Source of the DNA: Halogeometricum borinquense DSM 11551
GTDB lineage: Archaea > Halobacteriota > Halobacteria > Halobacteriales > Haloferacaceae
Direction: 5' to 3'
Assembly (NCBI RefSeq): GCF_000172995.2
Contig: NC_014729.1
Location: forward strand, 1,080,001 to 1,112,000
DNA: 32,000 bases
Shown one piece after another: positions 386 to 32,000 of the stretch (the stretch's first letter is position 1; each line of letters starts with the position of its first letter). Under the pieces are notes generated by a model. That model was given only the letters and a program-made list of their open reading frames with translations. It was not told the origin of the DNA and ran no database searches. A program made the position numbers and the translations under genes.

Positions 386-2290
386 CTAATCCGAGTCGGC
401 GGCGGCCACGCTTTCGGTGTCGGAGTGGTCCGCACCGTCCCCACCAGAGTTATCTGTACTGTCAGTATCGCCAAGCTCGAAGCCGGACATCGACGCGTAC
501 AGTGACGCGTACGTGCCTTCGGCAGCGACTAACTCTTCGTGGGTGCCGTCTTCGACCATGCGCCCGTCAGCAACGGTGTAGATTCGGTCGGCGTCCACGA
601 CGCTTCCGAGTCGGTGTGTCACGACGACGAACACGCGGTTACGCGTCGCCTCACGGATGCTCCCGAGAACGGACTCCTCCATCCGCGCGTCGAGGTTACT
701 CGTTGCCTCGTCAAACACCACTACGTCCGCGTCTCGGAGGAGCGCGCGCGCGATGGCCACGCGCTGTTTTTGTCCGCCCGAGAGGCGTACGCCGTCCTCG
801 CCGAGAACGGTGTCGTATCCGTCCGACAACCCCTCCGCGAACGCTGTCACGCCCGCGTCGGCGCAGGCACGTTCGAACGCTGATTCCGAAGCCTCGGGCG
901 CGCTTGCAAGGACGTTGTTCCGAAGCGTATCGTCGAAGATGTACGGGTCCTGCCGGACGACAGCGAGACGGTCGCGCCAGTCGTCAACTCGAACAGTCGA
1001 GAGGTCGGTTCCGTTTACTCGAATCGTTCCCGTGTCGGGAGCGTACAGACGAGCGAGAAGCGAGACGATGGTTGACTTGCCCGCGCCCGACCCGCCGACG
1101 ATAGCAATGAATTCTCCGCGCTCAGCCCGGAGACTCACGTTCGAGACGCCTTGGTCGCCATCCGGATAGCGGAAGGAAACGCCGTCGAACGCGACCGATT
1201 CGACGGGTGCCGGTACGTCGGCGTCACCCCCGCGGACGGCCCGGGCAGCAGCCAGTTCGTCCAGTTCGCGGAGCGTCTCGACCAAGTGCGGAAGTTTGCC
1301 GTCGAGACCGTATAGTTGTGACTGAAGCGATGAGACACCGGGACCGAGACGGAGCATCGCAAAAAGCAGCAGGCCGACTGCGCCCAACGAGAGTGCCGCC
1401 CACGTCAACGCGAGATAGACGGCGACGAGAACGACGACGGCGGCGGCGAATCGGTGGAGATTCGAGACGATGGCCTGGTTGACGCGAAGGCCGACGACGG
1501 CGTCGATGTAATCGTCCAACGCGTCAGTGTAGCGTGTCGCGGCCACGTCGTCTAATCCGAACAGCCGCACGTCGCGGATGCCCTGTACGCCCGCCTGCGC
1601 GTGCGCTTGAATCTCCGTATTGGCCGCTGCGATGCTGCTTCCCGCCCCGTACGCAGACCCGACGACGGAGCGAACACCGACCGTAATGACACCGAGAAGA
1701 GCGGCGACAGCGGTCGTGAGGAGCGGGTCAACGGCGAGAGCGAGGATGAGATACGTAAAGACGAGCAACGTGCGTTCGACCACAGAGAGGACACTCGACA
1801 ACACCGTCGCCGGATAGTTCGACTGCGTGACAAGCGTGTTCAGCAGTTCGTCGGACCCGCGTTCGTCCACGTACGAGAGGTCCGCATCAAGGATGCCACG
1901 GAAGACACCCGTCTTGAGACTGCGGATATAGTCGGCGACGAGTTGCGCTTGCAGATAGCGGACGAACGTCGCCATCCCGAATCGGAGTCCGAGTGCGAGA
2001 GCCGCGCCGCCGAGAAGCGTCTCGAACGTGAACGGAACGCCCACAGCGCCGTACGCCGCCGCAAACCACGAGACGACGGTCTGGTCGGACGCCACAGTGA
2101 GCGATGTGCGCCCGGCTTCGACCAGCGGAAGCAGAAAGCTCAGTCCGACTCCCTCGAAGACAGCGACGACGAGGCTCAGTGCAACGACCCCGCCGAATCG
2201 TGTCGGGTCGTAGGAGATGACAGTCCGAAGTGCGGCGAGCTTCTCTCCGAGCGTCGCAGACGGTGCTTCCGAGGAACGTTCGTCGCTCAC
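386..2290 (-). CDS. ABC exporter with fused permease and ATPase domains (MsbA/McjD-like half transporter).
   Basis: 634 aa. The hydrophobic multi-helix N-terminal half begins near aa 33, so there is no N-terminal C39 peptidase domain. Walker A GGSGAGKST, signature LSGGQKQR, Walker B VVVFDEATS. The start at 2288-2290 is GTG. The C-terminal tail is acidic. Confidence 0.9.
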   Translation of the reverse strand: MSDERSSEAPSATLGEKLAALRTVISYDPTRFGGVVALSLVVAVFEGVGLSFLLPLVEAGRTSLTVASDQTVVSWFAAAYGAVGVPFTFETLLGGAALALGLRFGMATFVRYLQAQLVADYIRSLKTGVFRGILDADLSYVDERGSDELLNTLVTQSNYPATVLSSVLSVVERTLLVFTYLILALAVDPLLTTAVAALLGVITVGVRSVVGSAYGAGSSIAAANTEIQAHAQAGVQGIRDVRLFGLDDVAATRYTDALDDYIDAVVGLRVNQAIVSNLHRFAAAVVVLVAVYLALTWAALSLGAVGLLLFAMLRLGPGVSSLQSQLYGLDGKLPHLVETLRELDELAAARAVRGGDADVPAPVESVAFDGVSFRYPDGDQGVSNVSLRAERGEFIAIVGGSGAGKSTIVSLLARLYAPDTGTIRVNGTDLSTVRVDDWRDRLAVVRQDPYIFDDTLRNNVLASAPEASESAFERACADAGVTAFAEGLSDGYDTVLGEDGVRLSGGQKQRVAIARALLRDADVVVFDEATSNLDARMEESVLGSIREATRNRVFVVVTHRLGSVVDADRIYTVADGRMVEDGTHEELVAAEGTYASLYASMSGFELGDTDSTDNSGGDGADHSDTESVAAADSD

Positions 2291-2673
2291 CGGCGACCAC
2301 CCGGGCGGTGTGCCCGCACGGCATCTGTGTGGGTCACCAGTACGTTCATGCGAGAAAAGGCGTCCGAGAGGCGGTTAAGTATGGGTCGCATTACGGGCCC
2401 TAGCTGTTCGTTTCGGACGGCGGATTGGACGGTAACAAATAGCAAGTCAGACGAGGCGTGCCGAGCGGAGGAAATCAACAGTCGGAGAGGGACAAATAGA
2501 GGGTGCAGGCGAGGAGGACCGAATAAAGAGAGCAGGCAAGAGGACCGAATGGGGGAGCAACGGGATGAACCAACGGACGAGAATCAACGAGGGCAGTCAC
2601 CAGCGGAAATACAACAAACGAGGATTCTCGAGGATGACTCACCACTGCGAGTATCGATCCACCGACGAATGGG

Positions 2674-2781
2674 CTACGATTCGTACTGCTTCGGTGGGAT
2701 GCTCGCGTCGTAATCGTTGTAAGTCTGCGTCTGTTCGTGAACGGTTCCGTAGGTTTCGAGCGTCGGGCGGTCGTACGTCAT
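2674..2781 (-). CDS. Candidate RiPP precursor peptide, 35 aa: MTYDRPTLETYGTVHEQTQTYNDYDASIPPKQYES.
   Basis: It starts at an internal ATG (2779-2781) of track ORF 2674..2898 and ends at TAG 2674-2676. 27 of 35 codons end in G or C (hand count). Y3, P6, L8, G12 and T18 fit the lasso leader motif YxxPxLx3Gx5Tx exactly. The C-terminal residue is Ser. It lies between the ABC exporter and the GNAT/PqqD/kinase genes. An SD-like GAGGTG lies 15 nt upstream. Confidence 0.65.
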   Translation of the reverse strand: MTYDRPTLETYGTVHEQTQTYNDYDASIPPKQYES

Positions 2782-2856
2782 AGTTCGAGGTCTGGACACC
2801 TCACTGGATACCTGTCCGGTTTCGGTGTTAGTTACTCTCGCATGAACTGACAACCC

Positions 2857-2883
2857 ATATATCAGTTCAGACCATATACAATT
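2857..2883. promoter_or_regulatory. AT-rich divergent promoter block between the precursor ORF (minus) and the GNAT gene (plus), with two TATA-like elements.
   Basis: ATATAT at 2857-2862 and ATATACAATT at 2874-2883 sit in an otherwise GC-rich context. They lie about 76-100 nt from both divergent start codons, so both transcripts would carry 5' UTRs. Confidence 0.3.
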
Positions 2884-2966
2884 GTTCACAACCACCAAAT
2901 ACTGTTACCTTCGGGGTTAGCCGTGCCCATACTAGACGCGTTCTATCATCACAGTCTCAATAACCA

Positions 2967-4145
2967 ATGGCGTCTCAGCCGTCAGTTCCGGCAATGAGTC
3001 TCGCACGCCACTCGGAGACGGTCGAACTAGACGATCAAACCTATCTTGTCCGGCCGTTTCAGTCGGACGACGAAAGTGGTCTCCGTGGCGTCTACGAGTC
3101 GGTAAGTGGCCGGGATCCCGGACACGAGTGGTTCGAGACGATGTACGGCTCCGAGAGTCTATTCGAGGACGCACCCATCGTCGTCATCGAATTCGAGGGA
3201 GACATCGTCGGCATGCTCCCGTCAGTTGCGTACCGAGTTCGGGTCGGTGAGAAATCGGCTATCGGCCTGCTCGGACGCGACGTAATGGTTCACCCGGAAC
3301 ATCGCCGCCGTGGAGTGTTCACCGCGGCGACGAACGTCGCTCTCGGAGGATATCTCGACTATGGAGAGGCGACGTTCATCTTCGGCCACATGAACGAACA
3401 GTCTCGCCAAGCGTGCGAGGAGATGGGTTGGAACATCCCGTCGATGCAACCGCAGTTCATCCGGCCGCGGAACGTCCGCGACTTCGTCCGCACTCGGACG
3501 GGGCAAAATCGGAGTCTCCGCGGGGCGCTGACGGCGACAACGCTTGCGGGCAACACGCTCGTCCACGATGCCGTCCGACGCGAGCGCGGCCTCTGCCGTC
3601 CAACTGATACGCTCGACGTGCAACGCGTCGATGGCGTACCCGCAGACAGATTGACTCGACTCCACGAGACGGCCACCCCGGAGACTATTCATCCGATTTT
3701 CGACGTACAGACGATTCGAGCGCACTTTTCGGACCCTGATTTCACCGGGCTTCGGACGTACGTCGCCGCGCGCGGCGGTTCGGACGTGGCGGCTCTCGTC
3801 GTCTCCGAGCGGCGGTGGCACCGAACACGCTGGCATTCAATCGTCCACGTCGCTCCGCTCTCCGGTGGCAAGACGCGCAAGCGCGCACTCGCCGCGCTTC
3901 TCGAACGCGCTCTGACGGACAAAAAGGGAAGTGACAGCGCTACCTCCGCCGACGCTTATCGCGTCGCGGTTCCGTTCCCGTCGGACCTCCTCCGGTCGTT
4001 CGGCTTCCTCTCGGACCGGACGTTCCCGATGTCGCGGCTCGAACCGCCGCGACTCTCACTCGGGTACCGCGTCATCAACGACGGACACGGGATTCGTGCG
4101 GCGCTCGCCGACGACAGTCACCATCTCTGGCACGTGGCGATGTGA
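2967..4145 (+). CDS. Large GNAT-family N-acetyltransferase: an N-terminal GNAT domain plus about 200 aa of uncharacterised C-terminal sequence.
   Basis: 392 aa. GNAT motif-A-like segment LLGRDVMVHPEHRRRGVFTAATNVAL...HMNEQSRQACEEMGW. ATG at 2967; an alternative ATG at 2994 is possible. Confidence 0.75.
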   Translation: MASQPSVPAMSLARHSETVELDDQTYLVRPFQSDDESGLRGVYESVSGRDPGHEWFETMYGSESLFEDAPIVVIEFEGDIVGMLPSVAYRVRVGEKSAIGLLGRDVMVHPEHRRRGVFTAATNVALGGYLDYGEATFIFGHMNEQSRQACEEMGWNIPSMQPQFIRPRNVRDFVRTRTGQNRSLRGALTATTLAGNTLVHDAVRRERGLCRPTDTLDVQRVDGVPADRLTRLHETATPETIHPIFDVQTIRAHFSDPDFTGLRTYVAARGGSDVAALVVSERRWHRTRWHSIVHVAPLSGGKTRKRALAALLERALTDKKGSDSATSADAYRVAVPFPSDLLRSFGFLSDRTFPMSRLEPPRLSLGYRVINDGHGIRAALADDSHHLWHVAM

Positions 4146-4261
4146 GTCGCCGCATCGGTTCGAGGCAACAATGAGCCAGAGAAAGCAGGGACAGATGAGA
4201 GACGGTCTCAGAGGAACTGAATACCGCCCGCCCCTGAACCGAAATCGGTCGTTCGGGGTGG

Positions 4262-4552
4262 TTACGCCGTTTCCGTGACTTCGGCCAGCCCGGCGTCAAC
4301 GAGGGTTTCGACGTACTCGCGTACGTCGGCCGCCGCCACTTCCGACTCGATATCGTACTCCTCCTCGATGGCGGCCGCAACGGCCTCGACCGTCTGTGGT
4401 TCGTCGATGAGTTCGAAAATCCGCGTTCCGACCGGGTTCATGCCGTGGTACAGTCCGGTGTCGAGGTTTAACAGGAGTCGTTCGCCACCCACGTCGGCGG
4501 CAACGACATCGGCGGACGCAACTACCGTTTTCTCGGGTGCAATGGCTGTCAT
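4262..4552 (-). CDS. PqqD-family protein (RiPP recognition element, lasso B1-like peptide chaperone).
   Basis: About 96 aa from ATG 4552; the track ORF starts at GTG 4576. The sequence ...GERLLLNLDTGLYHGMNPVGTRIFELIDEPQTVEAVAAAIEEEYDIE...VREYVETLVDAGL is a typical PqqD winged-helix pattern. Confidence 0.8.
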   Translation of the reverse strand: MTAIAPEKTVVASADVVAADVGGERLLLNLDTGLYHGMNPVGTRIFELIDEPQTVEAVAAAIEEEYDIESEVAAADVREYVETLVDAGLAEVTETA

Positions 4553-4645
4553 AGTGAGTAGAACGGGCGGTTGCACGATAGTTACTCACCGCGAACCAGT
4601 TGTTAGCCGATGGAAACCGAGTCAGCGACTCGCTACGTTCCTCGC

Positions 4646-5905
4646 CTAGCGGGGTTCGACTCGTCGCCGAAGCGCTTTGACAGCAAGGCGTGCTGGGCGG
4701 GTGACACGGTAGAGGCCGTGTAGGGAGTCTGGAAGCGAGACGGCCGCGTAGTCGGCCTGTTGCGGGACGAACGCCAGCCGGCACAGTGTCAGCACCTGCT
4801 GGCGGCGAGTGTCACACAACTGCAGTTCGTACCGCGTCCGCCGCCGCCGTCCGCGTTCGCCGTACGCGGCCGTTTCAGGATTCGATGCGACGAACCCCTG
4901 TGCGTCGATGACGACGCGACGAACGTTCGAATCCGCGCGGGCGTCGGCGAGTATCTCTGCTGGAACGGGCGCGTCGGCCGTCTCAGCCGCGAGCAACAGA
5001 CAGGCATGGAGGATGCGGCGTCGGTTGGCGCGCGCTGCACGCGCGCGGAGTCGGTCCCAGTCGATGTCGTTCTCAGAGAGGAACGCCGCGACGTCTACTA
5101 CCCAACCGAGGCGATTCCAGTAGTGTTTCGCGCCGTGGCGTGCGAGGACGAGAACCGTGTCCTCGTTCGAGAACGTCGGCACCGGGCGGCCGCCGACGAG
5201 TACCTCGGTTCGACGCTCCCACGCCGTCTCGAACGTCAACCACGACGGTCTGAGGTCGGTCCCGAGTCGCCAACGGAGTTCGACAGCGACGCCGACGGAC
5301 GGCGGCCGTCGGGTTGCCACAGTTCTCTCGGGGGTGTCCTCGGAAGGTCGGAAGTACGTGCGCTCGGCAGCGCGTGAGACAAGACTCTCTGCGTCTGTAA
5401 CTGCCGTTCCGTTCTCGGACCACGGGTTGTAGCCGAGTGATTCGAGGACGGCGCAGGCCTCAGGCACGTCTCCGGGTGGGACGAACAAGTCGAGGTCCGA
5501 GAAATCTCGGCGTGACAGGTCGCCATAGGCCGATACGGCGAGAACCGGGCCTTTGTAGACCAGACAACGGAGTCCGGCGTCGGCGAACGCGGACAGGACG
5601 CGGTGGAGTTCAGCGACGAACGAGAGGTTTCGGACACCCGTGGCACGGCACCGCTCTCTCGCGCGCGATTCAAACGCGGCGGGCACGTCGGCGTCGGTGA
5701 GGTGCGATGCGACCAGTGGTCCAACGCCGAGGTGATGTGCGGCCGTCAGTACCTCGTCCGCCTCGACTTCGGGTGCAAGGCGAGATATCGCCGTTTGCGC
5801 TGTTTCGTCGAGTGTCGGCCGCGCCAGCGCAGTCGCCAGCGCCACGGCGTCGTCGTCAGTGTCTGCCCTTTCGTGACCCTTGCGCGCGGCGGATGTGGCG
5901 CTCAC
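4646..5905 (-). CDS. Nucleotidyltransferase-family protein (PF14907-like 'uncharacterised nucleotidyltransferase').
   Basis: The motif VYKGPVLAVSAYGDLSRRDFSDLDLFVPPGD is a typical NTase G..DxD-type segment. I propose the start at GTG 5903-5905, which overlaps the kinase TGA stop (5902-5904) as GTGA. The track's longer ORF (to 6010) would overlap the kinase by 109 nt. Confidence 0.7.
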   Translation of the reverse strand: MSATSAARKGHERADTDDDAVALATALARPTLDETAQTAISRLAPEVEADEVLTAAHHLGVGPLVASHLTDADVPAAFESRARERCRATGVRNLSFVAELHRVLSAFADAGLRCLVYKGPVLAVSAYGDLSRRDFSDLDLFVPPGDVPEACAVLESLGYNPWSENGTAVTDAESLVSRAAERTYFRPSEDTPERTVATRRPPSVGVAVELRWRLGTDLRPSWLTFETAWERRTEVLVGGRPVPTFSNEDTVLVLARHGAKHYWNRLGWVVDVAAFLSENDIDWDRLRARAARANRRRILHACLLLAAETADAPVPAEILADARADSNVRRVVIDAQGFVASNPETAAYGERGRRRRTRYELQLCDTRRQQVLTLCRLAFVPQQADYAAVSLPDSLHGLYRVTRPARLAVKALRRRVEPR

Positions 5906-6840
5906 GAACCGACCTCCTGTTCGATACGGGAGACCACGTCCGGAAGCGCGTCGAACCGTCGAGGACGCGTTAGCGTTGCTACGGGGACCGACTCGACGAC
6001 AGAGAGACACCGGTCTACGGCGAGTATCGCCTCATCGCGGCGCTGTTGCGTGCCGACTGTGTAGGCGTTCCGCCCGAGTTCCGCGACGGCGGCGACGGAC
6101 GGAAGCGGGGTCACTGTCACGTCGTCGCCATCAACGAGGCGATAAACTGCCGCGAGCGGTACTGGATCGGAGTCTACATCGGCGGTCCGGTAGAACCGTT
6201 CGTCGGGACGAGAAGCAGTTGGCGTATTCTCACCGCCGTCAGTGACCGGGACGAGTCCACCGCCGAGCGTGGCCGCCGCGTCGTCGTGGAGTTTGATGGA
6301 CGCGAATCCGGGTTGGACGACGGGGCCGTCGTCGGTGAATCGGATGGCCGCCACGTCGTCGCCGAGCGCTCGGTGCCCGGCGGCGGCGAACGCGCCCGCG
6401 GTCGTAGATTTTCCCGCACCGGACTCACCGACGAACGCGACGGCACGACCGTCAACGGCGACGACGCTCCCGTGCAAGACGAGGTGGCCGCGTTGGTGCA
6501 AAAGGAAGTTGAACGCGGGGCCGAGAACCGTCCAGCGGACGTCTCTCTCGGTAGCGTCGGGCGCGGGGTCCACGACGATTTCGCGCCCTTGACTAACAGT
6601 AATGCGACAGGCGTCGTAAAGGAGGATGAACTCCTCGGGTGTCTCGAACGTTACGGCGGGGCCGTCGTCGGGGGTTTCTCCGTCGAACGGCACGGTTCCG
6701 ACGCGGACAAATACGTCGGCGTCGCCCTCAGCAGATTCGGTGACGACAGTTTCCGGGAGTTCCGGAAACGTAAGCGTCGAGGCAACGTCGAGACCGAACG
6801 CGCGGTATCGAAAGCGGCCTCGGGAGTCGGTACGCGTCAT
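5902..6840 (-). CDS. HPr kinase/phosphorylase-like P-loop kinase (HprK-related, lasso-cluster 'K'-type).
   Basis: 312 aa. LHGSVVAVDGRAVAFVGESGAGKSTTA matches the HprK C-terminal domain P-loop context. ATG at 6838-6840. Confidence 0.8.
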   Translation of the reverse strand: MTRTDSRGRFRYRAFGLDVASTLTFPELPETVVTESAEGDADVFVRVGTVPFDGETPDDGPAVTFETPEEFILLYDACRITVSQGREIVVDPAPDATERDVRWTVLGPAFNFLLHQRGHLVLHGSVVAVDGRAVAFVGESGAGKSTTAGAFAAAGHRALGDDVAAIRFTDDGPVVQPGFASIKLHDDAAATLGGGLVPVTDGGENTPTASRPDERFYRTADVDSDPVPLAAVYRLVDGDDVTVTPLPSVAAVAELGRNAYTVGTQQRRDEAILAVDRCLSVVESVPVATLTRPRRFDALPDVVSRIEQEVGS

Positions 6841-6876: not shown

Positions 6877-7148
6877 GCGCGTTACGCGTCAAAACCAGCC
6901 GTTAGCCGTCAACAATCGATTCGGGAACTCCCTCACCGTGTGAGGTGACAAACACCGGTGCGGGAGCGCCCGTGACTACTCGTCGTCCATCGTGAGCTGA
7001 CGACGACCCTCGTATCGTCTACGTCTGTTTGTCTACGTTCCGTACGTTTCGGTCGGAGGGCGGTCGTCCATGCTCGGGGGAGTTCCCCATTGCCGAGATA
7101 GCCGTCGAAACTGTTAGTTACTCGGCGCTGTCCTCATATTGGCGCGTC

Positions 7149-20768: not shown

Positions 20769-21911
20769 ATGAGACGAATGGGCGCTCCCGGTACTGGATT
20801 GTCGCGTCGTGAATTTCTGAAGGCCACCGGTGTGGCAGGACTCTCCGCGAGTGCGGGCTGTACCGCACCCTCGGCCGAGCAACCAGCGGCGAATACGCAG
20901 ACGACGACGGCGGCGGCGTCCTCGTCGCTCCCGACCACCGCTCCACCGCAGGTGGTGGATGTCGAAGATCAAGGCGGGTCGGTGACGCTGAAAACCAAAC
21001 CCGCACGTCACGAAGTTCACCCGCTCGACTCGATGGGTGGACCTGTCGAACTCCCGAAGGTGTGGGCATTTCAAGCGGACGACCGGCCGCCGTCCGTCCC
21101 CGCACCGATACTCCGGACAACCGAAGGCGAGGATATGGAAGTCGTCCTCGACAACACGCAGGGCAAGCGGCCACACACGGTACACTTCCACGGCGTCCAG
21201 AAGGCGTGGAAGGACGACGGCGTTCCGACGACGACGGGAATCACCGTCAAGCCCGGTGAGAAACACACGTATACGATTCCGGCGAACGTGCCGGGCACGC
21301 ACATCTACCACTGCCACTTCCAGACGCACCGCCACATCGACATGGGGATGTACGGTATCTTCCGTGTCGATCCCAAGGGGTACGAACCGGCCGACAAGGA
21401 GTACTTCATGACGCTCAAAGAGTGGGACTCCCGACTCAACCGCATGATGGCGGGCGAGGACATGTCCTACTCGCCGCGGAACCGCAACCCCGATGTGTTC
21501 ACCATCAACGGGAAGAGTGCGCCGCGGACGCTCCACCCTGAAGACGGGTCGCCAATCATCGTGTCGCAGGGCGACACCGTTCGCCTGCACCTCGTCAACG
21601 GCGGCTACATGAGCCACCCGATGCACATTCACAACCACCGCTTCCAGCGCGTGGAGAAGGACGGCGGGACGGTTCCGAAGGCCGCTCGGCACGATATGGA
21701 CGTGACCAACATCGCACCTGCCGAGCGTCACACCATCGAGTTCACCGCGAACTCCGACCCCGGCATCTATCTCATGCACTGCCACAAGGTCAACCACGTG
21801 ATGAACGGGAACTTCTACCCCGGCGGGATGCTCTCCGGCGTCGTCTACGAAGAGGCGATGGACACGGACATCTTTGCGACGTTGATGGATTACGCCGGAT
21901 ACAAAGGCTGA
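20769..21911 (+). CDS. Multicopper oxidase domain protein, a Tat-exported lipoprotein.
   Basis: 380 aa. Twin-arginine signal SRREFLKATGVAGLSASAGC with a lipobox Cys. Copper motifs HCHFQTHRHIDMGM and HCHKVNHVMNG. Confidence 0.85.
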   Translation: MRRMGAPGTGLSRREFLKATGVAGLSASAGCTAPSAEQPAANTQTTTAAASSSLPTTAPPQVVDVEDQGGSVTLKTKPARHEVHPLDSMGGPVELPKVWAFQADDRPPSVPAPILRTTEGEDMEVVLDNTQGKRPHTVHFHGVQKAWKDDGVPTTTGITVKPGEKHTYTIPANVPGTHIYHCHFQTHRHIDMGMYGIFRVDPKGYEPADKEYFMTLKEWDSRLNRMMAGEDMSYSPRNRNPDVFTINGKSAPRTLHPEDGSPIIVSQGDTVRLHLVNGGYMSHPMHIHNHRFQRVEKDGGTVPKAARHDMDVTNIAPAERHTIEFTANSDPGIYLMHCHKVNHVMNGNFYPGGMLSGVVYEEAMDTDIFATLMDYAGYKG

Positions 21912-21923
21912 ATCGACACTGAC

Positions 21924-21943
21924 GCCGGTCGTCATCGACCGGC
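21924..21943 (+). terminator. Hairpin downstream of the multicopper oxidase gene.
   Basis: Perfect 8-bp stem GCCGGTCG/CGACCGGC with loop TCAT, followed by the T-rich TATTCCTTCTC, 13 nt after the stop. Confidence 0.4.
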
Positions 21944-22145
21944 TATTCCTTCTCACCTGCTTCGACTCGGCGTTGTGAGCGGCGTCGCCGAACAGCGATA
22001 CACGATGACGACCTCCCCGTTAGCGCGTCGTCACTCACTATCGAATCTCAAAAAAGAGCGGTTCGCAGGGAGCGCTATCGCAGGTGGTCTCTCGAACACC
22101 TCGACGTTTCTCGGCGATCAGGCCGTCCGCTCCTTCGGTCCGCCC

Positions 22146-23207
22146 TCAGTCTGACGGATGGCCGTGAGTTCGCTCATCCGTTTCCGGCGGGCAGTCGTCG
22201 TCACCGAGGGCCAGCATCACCGCGACGGCTATCGGTGAAAGGAACGCCCCAAGCAAACTCCCGCCGAACAGCAGTGCCGAGTCGGAGACACCACCGAATG
22301 CGCCGGAATTAGAACTTCCGCCACTGCCACCGGCACCGCCGCCGGCGTCGCCGACGAGGACAACACCTTTCATTCCCATCGACTTGTGCGGTGTGCAGGC
22401 GTATTTGTAGGTACCCGTCTCCTCGAACGCGTGCGAGAAGGAGTGACCGCTCTTGTTGACCATCTCTGACTTGAACGACCCGTCCTCTGCGACGACGTTA
22501 TGCGCGCCGCCCTTCCCGTTCCACTCCCAGACGACGGTCGTTCCGGGATCGACGCGAATCGCGGCCGGACCGAACGCGAAACTCGCACCGTTACCTTTTG
22601 CGCCCACCTCCACTGTGACTTCGTCGTTCCCCGTCCGGTCAACGACGCCGTCGTAGTTGCTCGTGTTCGAAAACCACGATTTGAGAGCGGCGGGTTTCTC
22701 GCCGCCGGATTTCTCCGCCGTCGATTGCGTTGCCGACGACTCACCGCCGACAGCGGCGTCACCGACGACGACGGCACCTTTCATCCCCATCGGCTTGTGC
22801 GGTGTGCAGGCGTACTTCCAGACGCCCGCCTCTTCGAACGTGTGCGAGAAGGTGTGACCGCTCGTTCCGACCATCTCGGATTTGAACGAGCCATCCTCGG
22901 CAACGACGTTGTGACTGCTACCCTTCCCGTTCCATTTCCAGACGACGGTCGTTCCGGGATCGACGCGAACCGCTGCGGGGCCGAAGCCGAAATTACCGCC
23001 GTTCCCCGACGCGCCGACAGTGATGGTCACCTCCGACTGCCCTGTTCGGTCAACGACGCCGTCGTAGTTGCTCGTGTTCGAAAACCACGACGAGAGAGTC
23101 GGAGACTGCGCGCTGACCGTCGAGGACCCCACCCCGAGCGCGGCGGTTGCACCGACACCCACAGCCGTACGTACGACAGCTCGACGAGAGAAGCGGTTCG
23201 TCGTCAT
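22146..23207 (-). CDS. Two-domain halocyanin (tandem type-1 blue copper domains) with a Tat signal and a C-terminal hydrophobic anchor.
   Basis: 353 aa. Signal is RRAVVRTAVGVGATAAL. The module SWFSNTSNYDGVVDRTG...YACTPHK.MGMKG occurs twice. The C-terminus carries a Gly/Ser linker and a TM segment. Confidence 0.88.
   Translation of the reverse strand: MTTNRFSRRAVVRTAVGVGATAALGVGSSTVSAQSPTLSSWFSNTSNYDGVVDRTGQSEVTITVGASGNGGNFGFGPAAVRVDPGTTVVWKWNGKGSSHNVVAEDGSFKSEMVGTSGHTFSHTFEEAGVWKYACTPHKPMGMKGAVVVGDAAVGGESSATQSTAEKSGGEKPAALKSWFSNTSNYDGVVDRTGNDEVTVEVGAKGNGASFAFGPAAIRVDPGTTVVWEWNGKGGAHNVVAEDGSFKSEMVNKSGHSFSHAFEETGTYKYACTPHKSMGMKGVVLVGDAGGGAGGSGGSSNSGAFGGVSDSALLFGGSLLGAFLSPIAVAVMLALGDDDCPPETDERTHGHPSD
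22347..23090. repeat. Intragenic tandem duplication in the halocyanin gene (two units of about 333 bp, period 411 bp).
   Basis: Units 22347-22679 and 22758-23090 align with long identical runs, for example GTCAACGACGCCGTCGTAGTTGCTCGTGTTCGAAAACCACGA in both. Confidence 0.85.
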
Positions 23208-31360: not shown

Positions 31361-32000
31361 ATGACCCGACTGGTGGACCTCACGCGACCGGTCGAAACCG
31401 GGATGCCGACGTATCCCGGCGATCCCGACGTGGCCGTGACACCGCATGCGACGCAGGAAGCGGACGGCTACCGCGTCTCTCGTCTCGAACTCGGGACGCA
31501 CACCGGGACGCACATCGACGCCCCGGCGCACACCGAACGCGACGGCGCGACGCTCGATTCGTTCGACGCCGAGCGGTTCCGCTTCGATGCGCGTCTGGTA
31601 GACTGTCGCGGCGTCGGCGCGAACGAGGCCATCGGTTCCGAAGCAGTCCCCGAAACGGATGCGGAGATGCTCGTCTTCCGCACCGGGTGGGAAGCCGAAT
31701 GGGGGACCGACCGGATGACCGAGCATCCGTATCTCGCGCCGGAGACAGCCGAACGGTGCGCTGACGCCGGATACCATGTCGGCATCGACGCGCTCAGTCC
31801 GGATCCAACGGGCGGGAACGAAGCGAGCGACGGCGACGCGGACGGCCACAGCGACGAGTCGGGTGTCCCAGCCCACCACGCACTCCTTGGTGCCGGACTG
31901 CTAATCGTCGAAAATCTCACTAACCTCGGCGCGGTGCCAGAACGGTTCGAGTTACTCGCGCTCCCGTTGTGTGTGGACGCCGACGGCGCGCCCGTGCGGG
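31361..32000 (+). CDS. Cyclase family protein (kynurenine formamidase-like, PF04199 type). The 3' end lies outside the window.
   Basis: Hand translation from ATG 31361 stays open to the window end: MTRLVDLTRPVETGMPTYPGDP...LGTHTGTHIDAPAH... This carries the HxGTHxDxPxH motif. It is absent from the track because there is no stop in the window. Confidence 0.8.
   Translation, partial: MTRLVDLTRPVETGMPTYPGDPDVAVTPHATQEADGYRVSRLELGTHTGTHIDAPAHTERDGATLDSFDAERFRFDARLVDCRGVGANEAIGSEAVPETDAEMLVFRTGWEAEWGTDRMTEHPYLAPETAERCADAGYHVGIDALSPDPTGGNEASDGDADGHSDESGVPAHHALLGAGLLIVENLTNLGAVPERFELLALPLCVDADGAPVR

Follow-up and report, generated by a model that had tools for sequence, protein, structure and literature searches.

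A cyclase-less, probably lasso-derived peptide locus in Halogeometricum borinquense, with an invariant internal serine as the predicted modification site

We analysed a stretch of 32,000 nucleotides from the genome of the haloarchaeon Halogeometricum borinquense DSM 11551 (NC_014729.1, positions 1,080,001 to 1,112,000; hereafter the window, with positions counted from its first letter), which carries, at 2674–2781 on the minus strand, a gene for a 35-residue precursor peptide. The gene belongs to a locus extending from 386 to 6840, together with genes for an ABC exporter, a GNAT acetyltransferase, a discrete recognition element (RRE) for peptides that are made on the ribosome and then modified (RiPPs), a nucleotidyltransferase (NTase) and a kinase. 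We consider it probable that the precursor is the substrate of a lasso-derived RiPP pathway that has no cyclase and, in Halogeometricum, no B2 leader peptidase either, making it an archaeal counterpart of the linear polyphosphorylated peptides (LPPs), with Ser27 rather than the C-terminal Ser35 as the phospho-acceptor.

The precursor open reading frame (ORF) runs from ATG to TAG and encodes MTYDRPTLETYGTVHEQTQTYNDYDASIPPKQYES. Residues 1–19 (2725–2781) make up the leader, MTYDRPTLETYGTVHEQTQ, and residues 20–35 (2677–2724) the putative core, TYNDYDASIPPKQYES; the stop codon occupies 2674–2676, the interval 2674–2724 being this stop plus the 16 core codons. Leader residues Y3, P6, L8, G12 and T18 stand at positions -17, -14, -12, -8 and -2 and fit the pattern Y(-17)xxP(-14)xL(-12)xxxG(-8)xxxxxT(-2)x, a spacing that is of the canonical lasso type; discrete RREs of lasso type bind this motif. 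When the 739 stop-to-stop ORFs of the window were searched with a leader hidden Markov model (HMM) trained only on leaders from other haloarchaeal loci, the precursor ORF matched at E=1.6e-9 and the runner-up at E=0.11. Since a model built without this genome singles out the precursor ORF in the window, we conclude that it is a genuine gene and not a chance ORF. The same gene is called as a 35-residue coding sequence, with an identical core, in a second Halogeometricum genome (locus L136). The NCBIfam model lasso_cyano matches residues 2–22 weakly and below threshold (17.3 bits against a cutoff of 33), and a scan for sigma-70 promoters and intrinsic terminators around the gene, which is uninformative for archaeal promoters, found nothing. 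An earlier reading of this DNA, made from its letters only (the sequence-only reading), had described the putative core as 16 residues long, beginning with Thr, acidic only at D4, D6 and E15, with A-S-I at positions 7–9, a single Lys (K12) and a C-terminal Ser, and the translation bears out every part of that description.

The case for an internal acceptor residue comes from comparison with related loci. Kinase-alignment scans of genome and metagenome contigs, together with exact-protein look-ups, yielded about 40 haloarchaeal loci from Haloarcula, Halobellus, Halorubrum, Natronomonas, Salinigranum, the second Halogeometricum strain and metagenome-assembled genomes. The alignment used to find them held 11 close sequences, a 26-sequence version being too diverse. 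Kinase, NTase, ABC exporter and RRE are common to all of these loci, and 51 distinct cores were recovered, preceded by T or S at position -2 in 51/51. The cores fall into two types, A and B, which co-segregate with two separate kinase clades; the Type B relatives of the 35-residue peptide were found with a padded Type B profile. All 31 Type A cores contain the Tyr of a D-[D/G]-G-Y-[G/D] motif, an example being the Haloarcula WWDHDDGYGKWS cluster, which has a B2. In the 20 Type B cores, that of the window among them, [G/A]-S precedes a Pro that comes no more than three residues later. Their Ser is present in 20/20, at core position 5–8, and a MAFFT alignment of Type B precursors leaves only two invariant core columns, one Ser and one Pro. 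In the window the invariant Ser is Ser27 (core S8; codon AGC at 2701–2703, minus strand), which lies within D-A-S-I-P-P, an instance of [G/A]-S-x-P, and is our predicted modification site.

A biochemical precedent for such a residue exists in bacteria. The LPPs of Bacillota (Popov et al., Nat Commun 2026, PMC13381572) are encoded with an RRE that is a discrete protein, a kinase of HprK-like type (LppK), an NTP transferase (LppN) and an MsbA-like exporter; they have no cyclase. LppK loads an internal core residue, Ser3, with several phosphates and leaves S3A, S3T and S3Y variants unphosphorylated (PMC13381572). This published cyclase-less comparator was missed by the sequence-only reading. Because the Ser is invariant throughout Type B, and because LppK provides the precedent of an HprK-like kinase acting on an internal Ser, we favour Ser27 as the acceptor.

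The pathway that we propose would proceed as follows. The RRE would bind the YxxP leader and present the precursor's C-terminal portion to the kinase, which would phosphorylate, or polyphosphorylate, the invariant Ser27. By analogy with PsmN of the pseudomycoidin pathway, the NTase may then add a hexose or a nucleotide-derived group to the Ser27 phosphate. The GNAT might acylate an amine other than a conserved Lys, for instance the N-terminus or an appended group, and the ABC transporter would export the linear product. As for the leader, in relatives it would mostly be cut after T-x by B2, while in Halogeometricum it would either be removed by an unlinked protease or stay attached. We infer all of these steps from analogy and conservation.

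Several considerations weigh against this proposal. Every step of it is a prediction. The conservation of Ser27 speaks for functional importance, and the residue could instead serve as the site of the NTase, as a recognition determinant or as part of a pharmacophore. The HprK-like kinases of paeninodin and pseudomycoidin use a C-terminal Ser (PMC6993621), a residue that Halogeometricum also has, so that Ser35 may be a second site peculiar to this lineage. The residue equivalent to Ser27 in Type A is Tyr, which LppK refuses, so the kinase may not act at this position family-wide. The loss of B2, together with a pseudogenised second precursor, hints at partial decay of the locus. Lastly, the role of the NTase is not resolved even for the LPPs (PMC13381572).

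The sequence-only reading had proposed another model, in which cleavage after T-Q releases a free 16-residue core, the kinase acts on Ser35, the NTase extends the resulting phosphate and the GNAT acetylates K12 or the new N-terminus. We think this model unlikely. Both residues are there, Ser35 being encoded by TCG at 2677–2679 on the minus strand, and in the bacterial systems PadeK and PsmK do phosphorylate a C-terminal Ser, to which PsmN then adds a hexose (PMC6993621). However, a C-terminal Ser is found in 1/20 Type B cores, that of Halogeometricum, and in 2/31 Type A cores. The closest relatives, with precursors 64–82% identical, end in A, N, D or E (e.g. ...KQYDA, ...KEYDA, ...KEYDHN; the sequences of the nearest relatives are TYDDYPGSVPPKQYDA, TYDDYPGSVPPKEYDA, TYDNHGGSVPPKEYDHN, THYEGSQQPEWFDD and TMYEGSEQPGWYGDE). 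The proposed Lys target fares similarly: Lys at Ser+4 is kept in the closest subclade (PPKQY or PPKEY), but Type B as a whole has Lys in 10/20 cores, at Ser+4 in eight, and none in either core of the GNAT-containing locus L063 or in one of the two cores of Salinigranum rubrum.

The T-Q cleavage assumed in that model would be the work of B2, which is recognisable in most relatives by NF033537 scores of 72–91 bits against a cutoff of 33. Searching the window by tblastn with four haloarchaeal B2s gave a best E of 0.024, in an unrelated protein, and the Pfam-scanned large ORFs of the window include no transglutaminase-like B2, cyclase or signal peptidase, those outside the locus being housekeeping genes only. 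A signal-peptidase domain is missing also from the gene lists of L063, L065, L135 and L136, and neither cyclase nor B2 lies within ±10 kb at L136. When 5.8 billion proteins were searched with a B2 profile, many haloarchaeal B2s came up, with no Halogeometricum among the top 120, and a B2 search of a plasmid collection returned Halopiger only and no Halogeometricum. B2 is missing from the window and L136, as it is from L065/L066, and since it is missing, a free 16-residue core is no more than a putative product in Halogeometricum.

We rejected a B2-like tblastn match at 31391–31582, which lies inside an unrelated protein of the HxGTHxDxPxH type. The ORF carrying this motif (31361–32000, plus strand) runs off the end of the window and is unrelated to the cluster; we take the motif to be typical of the kynurenine-formamidase-like 'cyclase' family.

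A further alternative is that the NTase directly targets the hydroxyl of [G/A]-S in Type B or G-Y in Type A, by O-nucleotidylylation or phosphoglycosylation, leaving the kinase to modify another site, such as the invariant Thr/Ser at leader position -2 or a Tyr. The exchange of Ser for Tyr at the equivalent position would suit a hydroxyl-directed transferase better than a Ser-specific kinase, given that LppK rejects Tyr; moreover, Ser and Thr are both wholly lacking in nine of the 31 Type A cores, and the -2 residue is T or S throughout. On the other hand, PsmN acts only on peptide that is already phosphorylated (PMC6993621), recognition by B2 already accounts for T(-2), and the kinase clades track core type, which is expected if it is the kinase that reads the core. 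On balance we judge a direct NTase target to be quite unlikely. A kinase that forms an acyl-phosphate or ester on an acidic residue before Gly-Ser was also considered, and was rejected on finding N, I, T, P or G at Ser-2 in many Type B cores. Some cores of the Type A loci (L004–L017, L067–L080 and proteins P0260–P0266) have Gly/Trp/His-rich tails, such as HYDSYGGWDGGGGWDWGWG and HTDDSYGGWHKGKGHGGHGGHGHKGGWGGGFGW, and the Ser/Thr-free cores of this type make one ask on what an HprK-like kinase would act in them.

Could the locus be a decaying remnant which, having lost its cyclase, its B2 and one precursor copy, makes no functional product? A decayed second copy of the precursor is indeed present at 7017–7071 on the minus strand, found as the runner-up of the leader HMM search and by blastn against the intact gene (gapped alignment, 42/52 identities, E=3e-8). 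Within it, the ORF at 7033–7071 reads MDDRPPTETYGT and then stops, the copy having suffered a 1-nt deletion and a CAG>TAG change. Its place, 177–230 nt upstream of the kinase start, is the usual one for precursors in related loci, and the copy is common to L136, in which it reads MYDRPPTETYGT up to the stop and the Tyr of YxxP is still intact. Decay would also agree with the absence of a B2 that most relatives keep, with a gene order rearranged relative to L063 and L135, and with relaxed constraint on the GNAT. The last point comes from dN/dS values computed between the window and the L136 strain, which share ∼97% nucleotide identity: these are 0.43 (GNAT), 0.15 (kinase), 0.21 (NTase), 0.12 (RRE), 0.16 (ABC exporter) and 0.08 (two flanking genes). 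The same values argue against decay, however, as the kinase, NTase, RRE and ABC exporter, at 0.12–0.21, are under purifying selection, and all four are full length with catalytic motifs intact. Between the two strains the precursor differs by one leader substitution (T7A), its core being identical; L065/L066 represent an independent relative without B2; and the local order of GNAT, precursor and next gene recurs in metagenomic relatives. Our conclusion from these results is that the cluster is reduced and rearranged and its enzymes are maintained, and we regard loss of function as very unlikely. Beside the kinase gene of L135 (Salinigranum rubrum, CP026309.1) there is a gap of ∼1.5 kb without called genes.

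The statement of the sequence-only reading that the core cannot form a lasso has held up. An Asn_synthase-type cyclase (PF00733) was found in none of the ORFs of the window, nor was a lasso cyclase found in about two dozen related loci whose flanking sequence extends for 7 kb or more in either direction, and the core has no Asp or Glu at positions 7–9. It is hardly credible that a true lasso is still made by means of a cyclase gene at another place in the genome: minimal lasso systems are known from the case of pseudomycoidin (PMC6993621), and a complete cluster of B1, B2, cyclase, kinase and NTase does occur on the Halopiger plasmid pHALXA01, but the core of the window also starts with Thr, only 10/51 cores across the family begin with G, A, S or C, only 15/51 have D/E at positions 7–9, and no cyclase lies within ±7–10 kb in the two dozen loci, the one Asn_synthase among them, at L003, being an MCG-type AsnB.

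An SGGxDS PP-loop motif proved unsuitable as a proxy for the cyclase. Its matches in Haloarcula are diphthamide synthase, the match at L003 is the AsnB just mentioned, and that in the window, a PP-loop/GATase ORF, is PurF-like. The L003 gene (5559–7550, minus strand, in Halobellus ordinarius) encodes a glutamine-hydrolysing asparagine synthetase with an MCG start, a PF00733 match at 1.7e-89 and a full GATase domain. Its cluster, which has no cyclase otherwise, carries it as an insertion separating the precursors from the ABC gene, and the sister species (L002) lacks it; the gene may be a mere passenger, or its product may tailor the peptide by amidation.

The Halopiger xanaduensis cluster (pHALXA01, NC_015658.1; locus L140) is haloarchaeal too, and its kinase (3e-44), NTase (8e-56), ABC exporter (4.5e-151), PqqD protein and B2 come from the same families as those of the loci above. 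In contrast to the other loci, it keeps an Asn-synthetase-like cyclase without N-terminal Cys, directly after B2, and its core is longer and unrelated (QVNKEGVASDQW...). At 19–29 kb of this plasmid we find genes for the ABC exporter, PqqD, B2, the cyclase, a precursor (leader ...YSPPELTEYGSIESVTE, followed by QVNKEGVASDQWSENTPLLGSIQPAPT), the HprK-like kinase and the NTase, adjoining a flippase gene and a sulfatase-like gene; by its gene content, the cluster is a candidate source of what would be the first lasso peptide from an archaeon. Because the Halopiger plasmid has a complete cluster, most relatives only B2, and the Halogeometricum loci neither cyclase nor B2, a likely evolutionary series runs from the full lasso set to a cyclase-less set and from there to one without cyclase and B2.

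Where, then, does the window locus stand among known systems? In gene content it resembles the LPP clusters, combining an RRE with a kinase of the HprK-like type, an NTP transferase, an exporter that is MsbA-like and no cyclase. Both have the YxxP RRE-binding motif in the leader, and the LPPs add to this an internal acceptor Ser near the core start and a linear product. The differences are as follows. LPPs are defined by an SpI/SipW-like leader peptidase, whereas the haloarchaeal family has the lasso B2 and the Halogeometricum loci encode neither. The LPP leader reads YxxPxVLxHQxIxFETxxS, of which the window aligns only YxxPx[L/V] and the Thr, with no HQ and no FET; nor does the window have a Ser three residues after the leader Thr, where LPPs have their phospho-Ser (core position 3). 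In sequence score the RRE of the window matches the lasso B1 proteins TbiB1 and PbaB1 at 44 and 37.5 bits, against 25.6 bits for LppB, and by this measure it appears nearer to the former. The host is an archaeon, LPPs being reported as restricted to Bacillota (PMC13381572), and the GNAT is an extra accessory. Since the peptidase differs from that of the LPPs and the RRE lineage appears to differ as well, the family appears to be an independent archaeal lineage that has lost the cyclase and is LPP-like by predicted function. A locus from Oceanobacillus (L021) was discarded as an LPP comparator: it starts with an Asn_synthase fragment and is a paeninodin-like lasso cluster.

The paeninodin and pseudomycoidin systems (PadeK, PsmK and PsmN; PMC6993621) likewise share with the window an HprK-like kinase, an NTP_transf_5-type NTase, a B1 RRE, an ABC exporter and a similar leader, and the window peptide also ends in Ser. 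They differ in having a macrolactam synthetase, cores with A/G at position 1 and D/E at 7–9, and a C-terminal Ser that is phosphorylated, whereas the window has no cyclase, a core that is not lasso-competent and a conserved Ser that is internal. With the cyclase, B2 and core rules of lasso peptides all absent from it, the window locus is not a lasso biosynthetic gene cluster, and neither is it an LPP cluster in the published sense.

HprK-like and PqqD-family pairs without a lasso cyclase have also been defined bioinformatically, as HPr-rel-A (TIGR04352 kinase A with TIGR04353 PqqD) and SynChlorMet (ScmC with ScmD). We could assign the window proteins to neither system: they fall below the curated cutoffs of HPr-rel-A (39.1 against 200 bits and 26.1 against 35 bits) and of SynChlorMet (ScmC, 24 against 125 bits; ScmD, 37 against 100), and these scores make them no more than distant relatives. 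For albusnodin, which is a true lasso peptide, the cluster encodes a GNAT-type acetyltransferase, and the acetylated Lys is essential. The presence of a GNAT in a lasso-type cluster is common to albusnodin and the window, but Lys is not conserved in the GNAT-associated cores here.

We turn now to the individual proteins of the locus. The HprK-like P-loop kinase, of the ScmC family (5902–6840, minus strand; 312 residues), matches PF07475 at 3.5e-6 and TIGR04352 at 4e-10, both below cutoff, and has a precomputed PF27840 (ScmC) assignment. Its GxSGxGK Walker A motif and D161–D162 pair are invariant, the latter being analogous to D158/D159 of PsmK, which are essential (PMC6993621). An AF2 model of the kinase (pLDDT 88.6) matches PEPCK at 1e-7 and HprK/P at 2e-5, suggesting that it shares their fold. 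The NTP_transf_5 NTase (4646–5905, minus strand; PF14907, 1.9e-60) has a KGP...R...D-L-D motif, with D137 and D139, that is kept in the 14 aligned relatives covering it and resembles the catalytic D134/D136 of PsmN (PMC6993621). Mechanical ORF calling gives this protein 454 residues from 6010, overlapping the kinase by 108 nt; almost certainly, translation begins instead with the GTG at 5905, where the sequence GTGA also contains the stop codon of the kinase gene (5902–5905), which yields 419 residues, the length at which the L136 NTase is called.

The discrete, B1-like RRE of the PqqD family (4262–4576, minus strand) matches PF05402 at 1.9e-18 and lasso_PqqD_Bac at 2.9e-16, the score for the latter being below that model's exception cutoff. 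Its matches in the PDB are TbiB1 (2e-10), PbaB1 (9x90; 2.4e-8) and LppB (9x8z; 1.3e-4). The exporter gene (386–2290, minus strand; 634 residues; PF00005, PF00664, HepA_fam_ABC 5e-98) encodes an MsbA/HepA-like protein without a peptidase domain, shares the strand of the precursor, downstream of it, and is kept in all related loci. The divergent GNAT acetyltransferase gene (2967–4145, plus strand; 392 residues; PF13527, 5e-9) is oriented away from the precursor and has a possible other start at 2994. Its H-R-R-R-G loop is invariant in seven homologues, its profile gives only weak generic GNAT matches in the PDB, and a single-sequence AF2 model was rejected at a pLDDT of 30.5. A GNAT is also present in L136, L137, L063, L135 and L002/3. 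Elsewhere in the window, a multicopper-oxidase-domain protein gene (20769–21911, plus strand) adjoins a gene with two plastocyanin/azurin-type copper-binding stretches (22146–23207, minus strand); together (20769–23207) the two may form a module for copper redox chemistry or denitrification, which has no relation to the precursor locus.

Parts of such clusters have been noticed before. For a Haloarcula isolate, a genome note from 2023 lists, without analysis, a RiPP cluster called by antiSMASH that contains B1, B2 and a kinase (PMC10093198). Surveys list 'lassopeptides' in archaea; in NCBI the precursors of S. rubrum go under the name 'lasso RiPP family leader peptide-containing protein', while the B2s are entered as 'lasso peptide biosynthesis B2 protein'. 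Our literature search returned no description of the cyclase-less haloarchaeal family, of its two core motifs or of the variant without B2. We know of no archaeal lasso-type or LPP-type product that has been characterised.

The window locus and its roughly 40 relatives indicate that loss of the cyclase from lasso clusters bearing a kinase and an NTase has taken place in Archaea as well. They also point to a likely annotation trap, in that NCBI and antiSMASH call parts of these clusters 'lasso' though no lasso can form. The comparative data turn the vague idea of a tailored peptide into a defined prediction of the acceptor site, Ser27 as opposed to Ser35, and suggest that in the sister clade, Type A, the chemistry might be directed at Tyr. 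Going further, we tentatively suggest, as a possibility less probable than the pathway proposed above, that these loci make up an undescribed haloarchaeal class of linear, lasso-derived RiPPs, in which an RRE-guided kinase/NTase pair would decorate a single invariant hydroxyl in acidic-Gly-[Ser/Tyr], the Halogeometricum product either keeping its leader or being trimmed by a housekeeping protease. If this were true, Type A would hold the first Tyr-directed enzyme pair of the HprK-like kinase/NTP_transf_5 family, and the haloarchaea would display a stepwise natural reduction, from lasso peptides to linear peptides with B2 and on to linear peptides without it.

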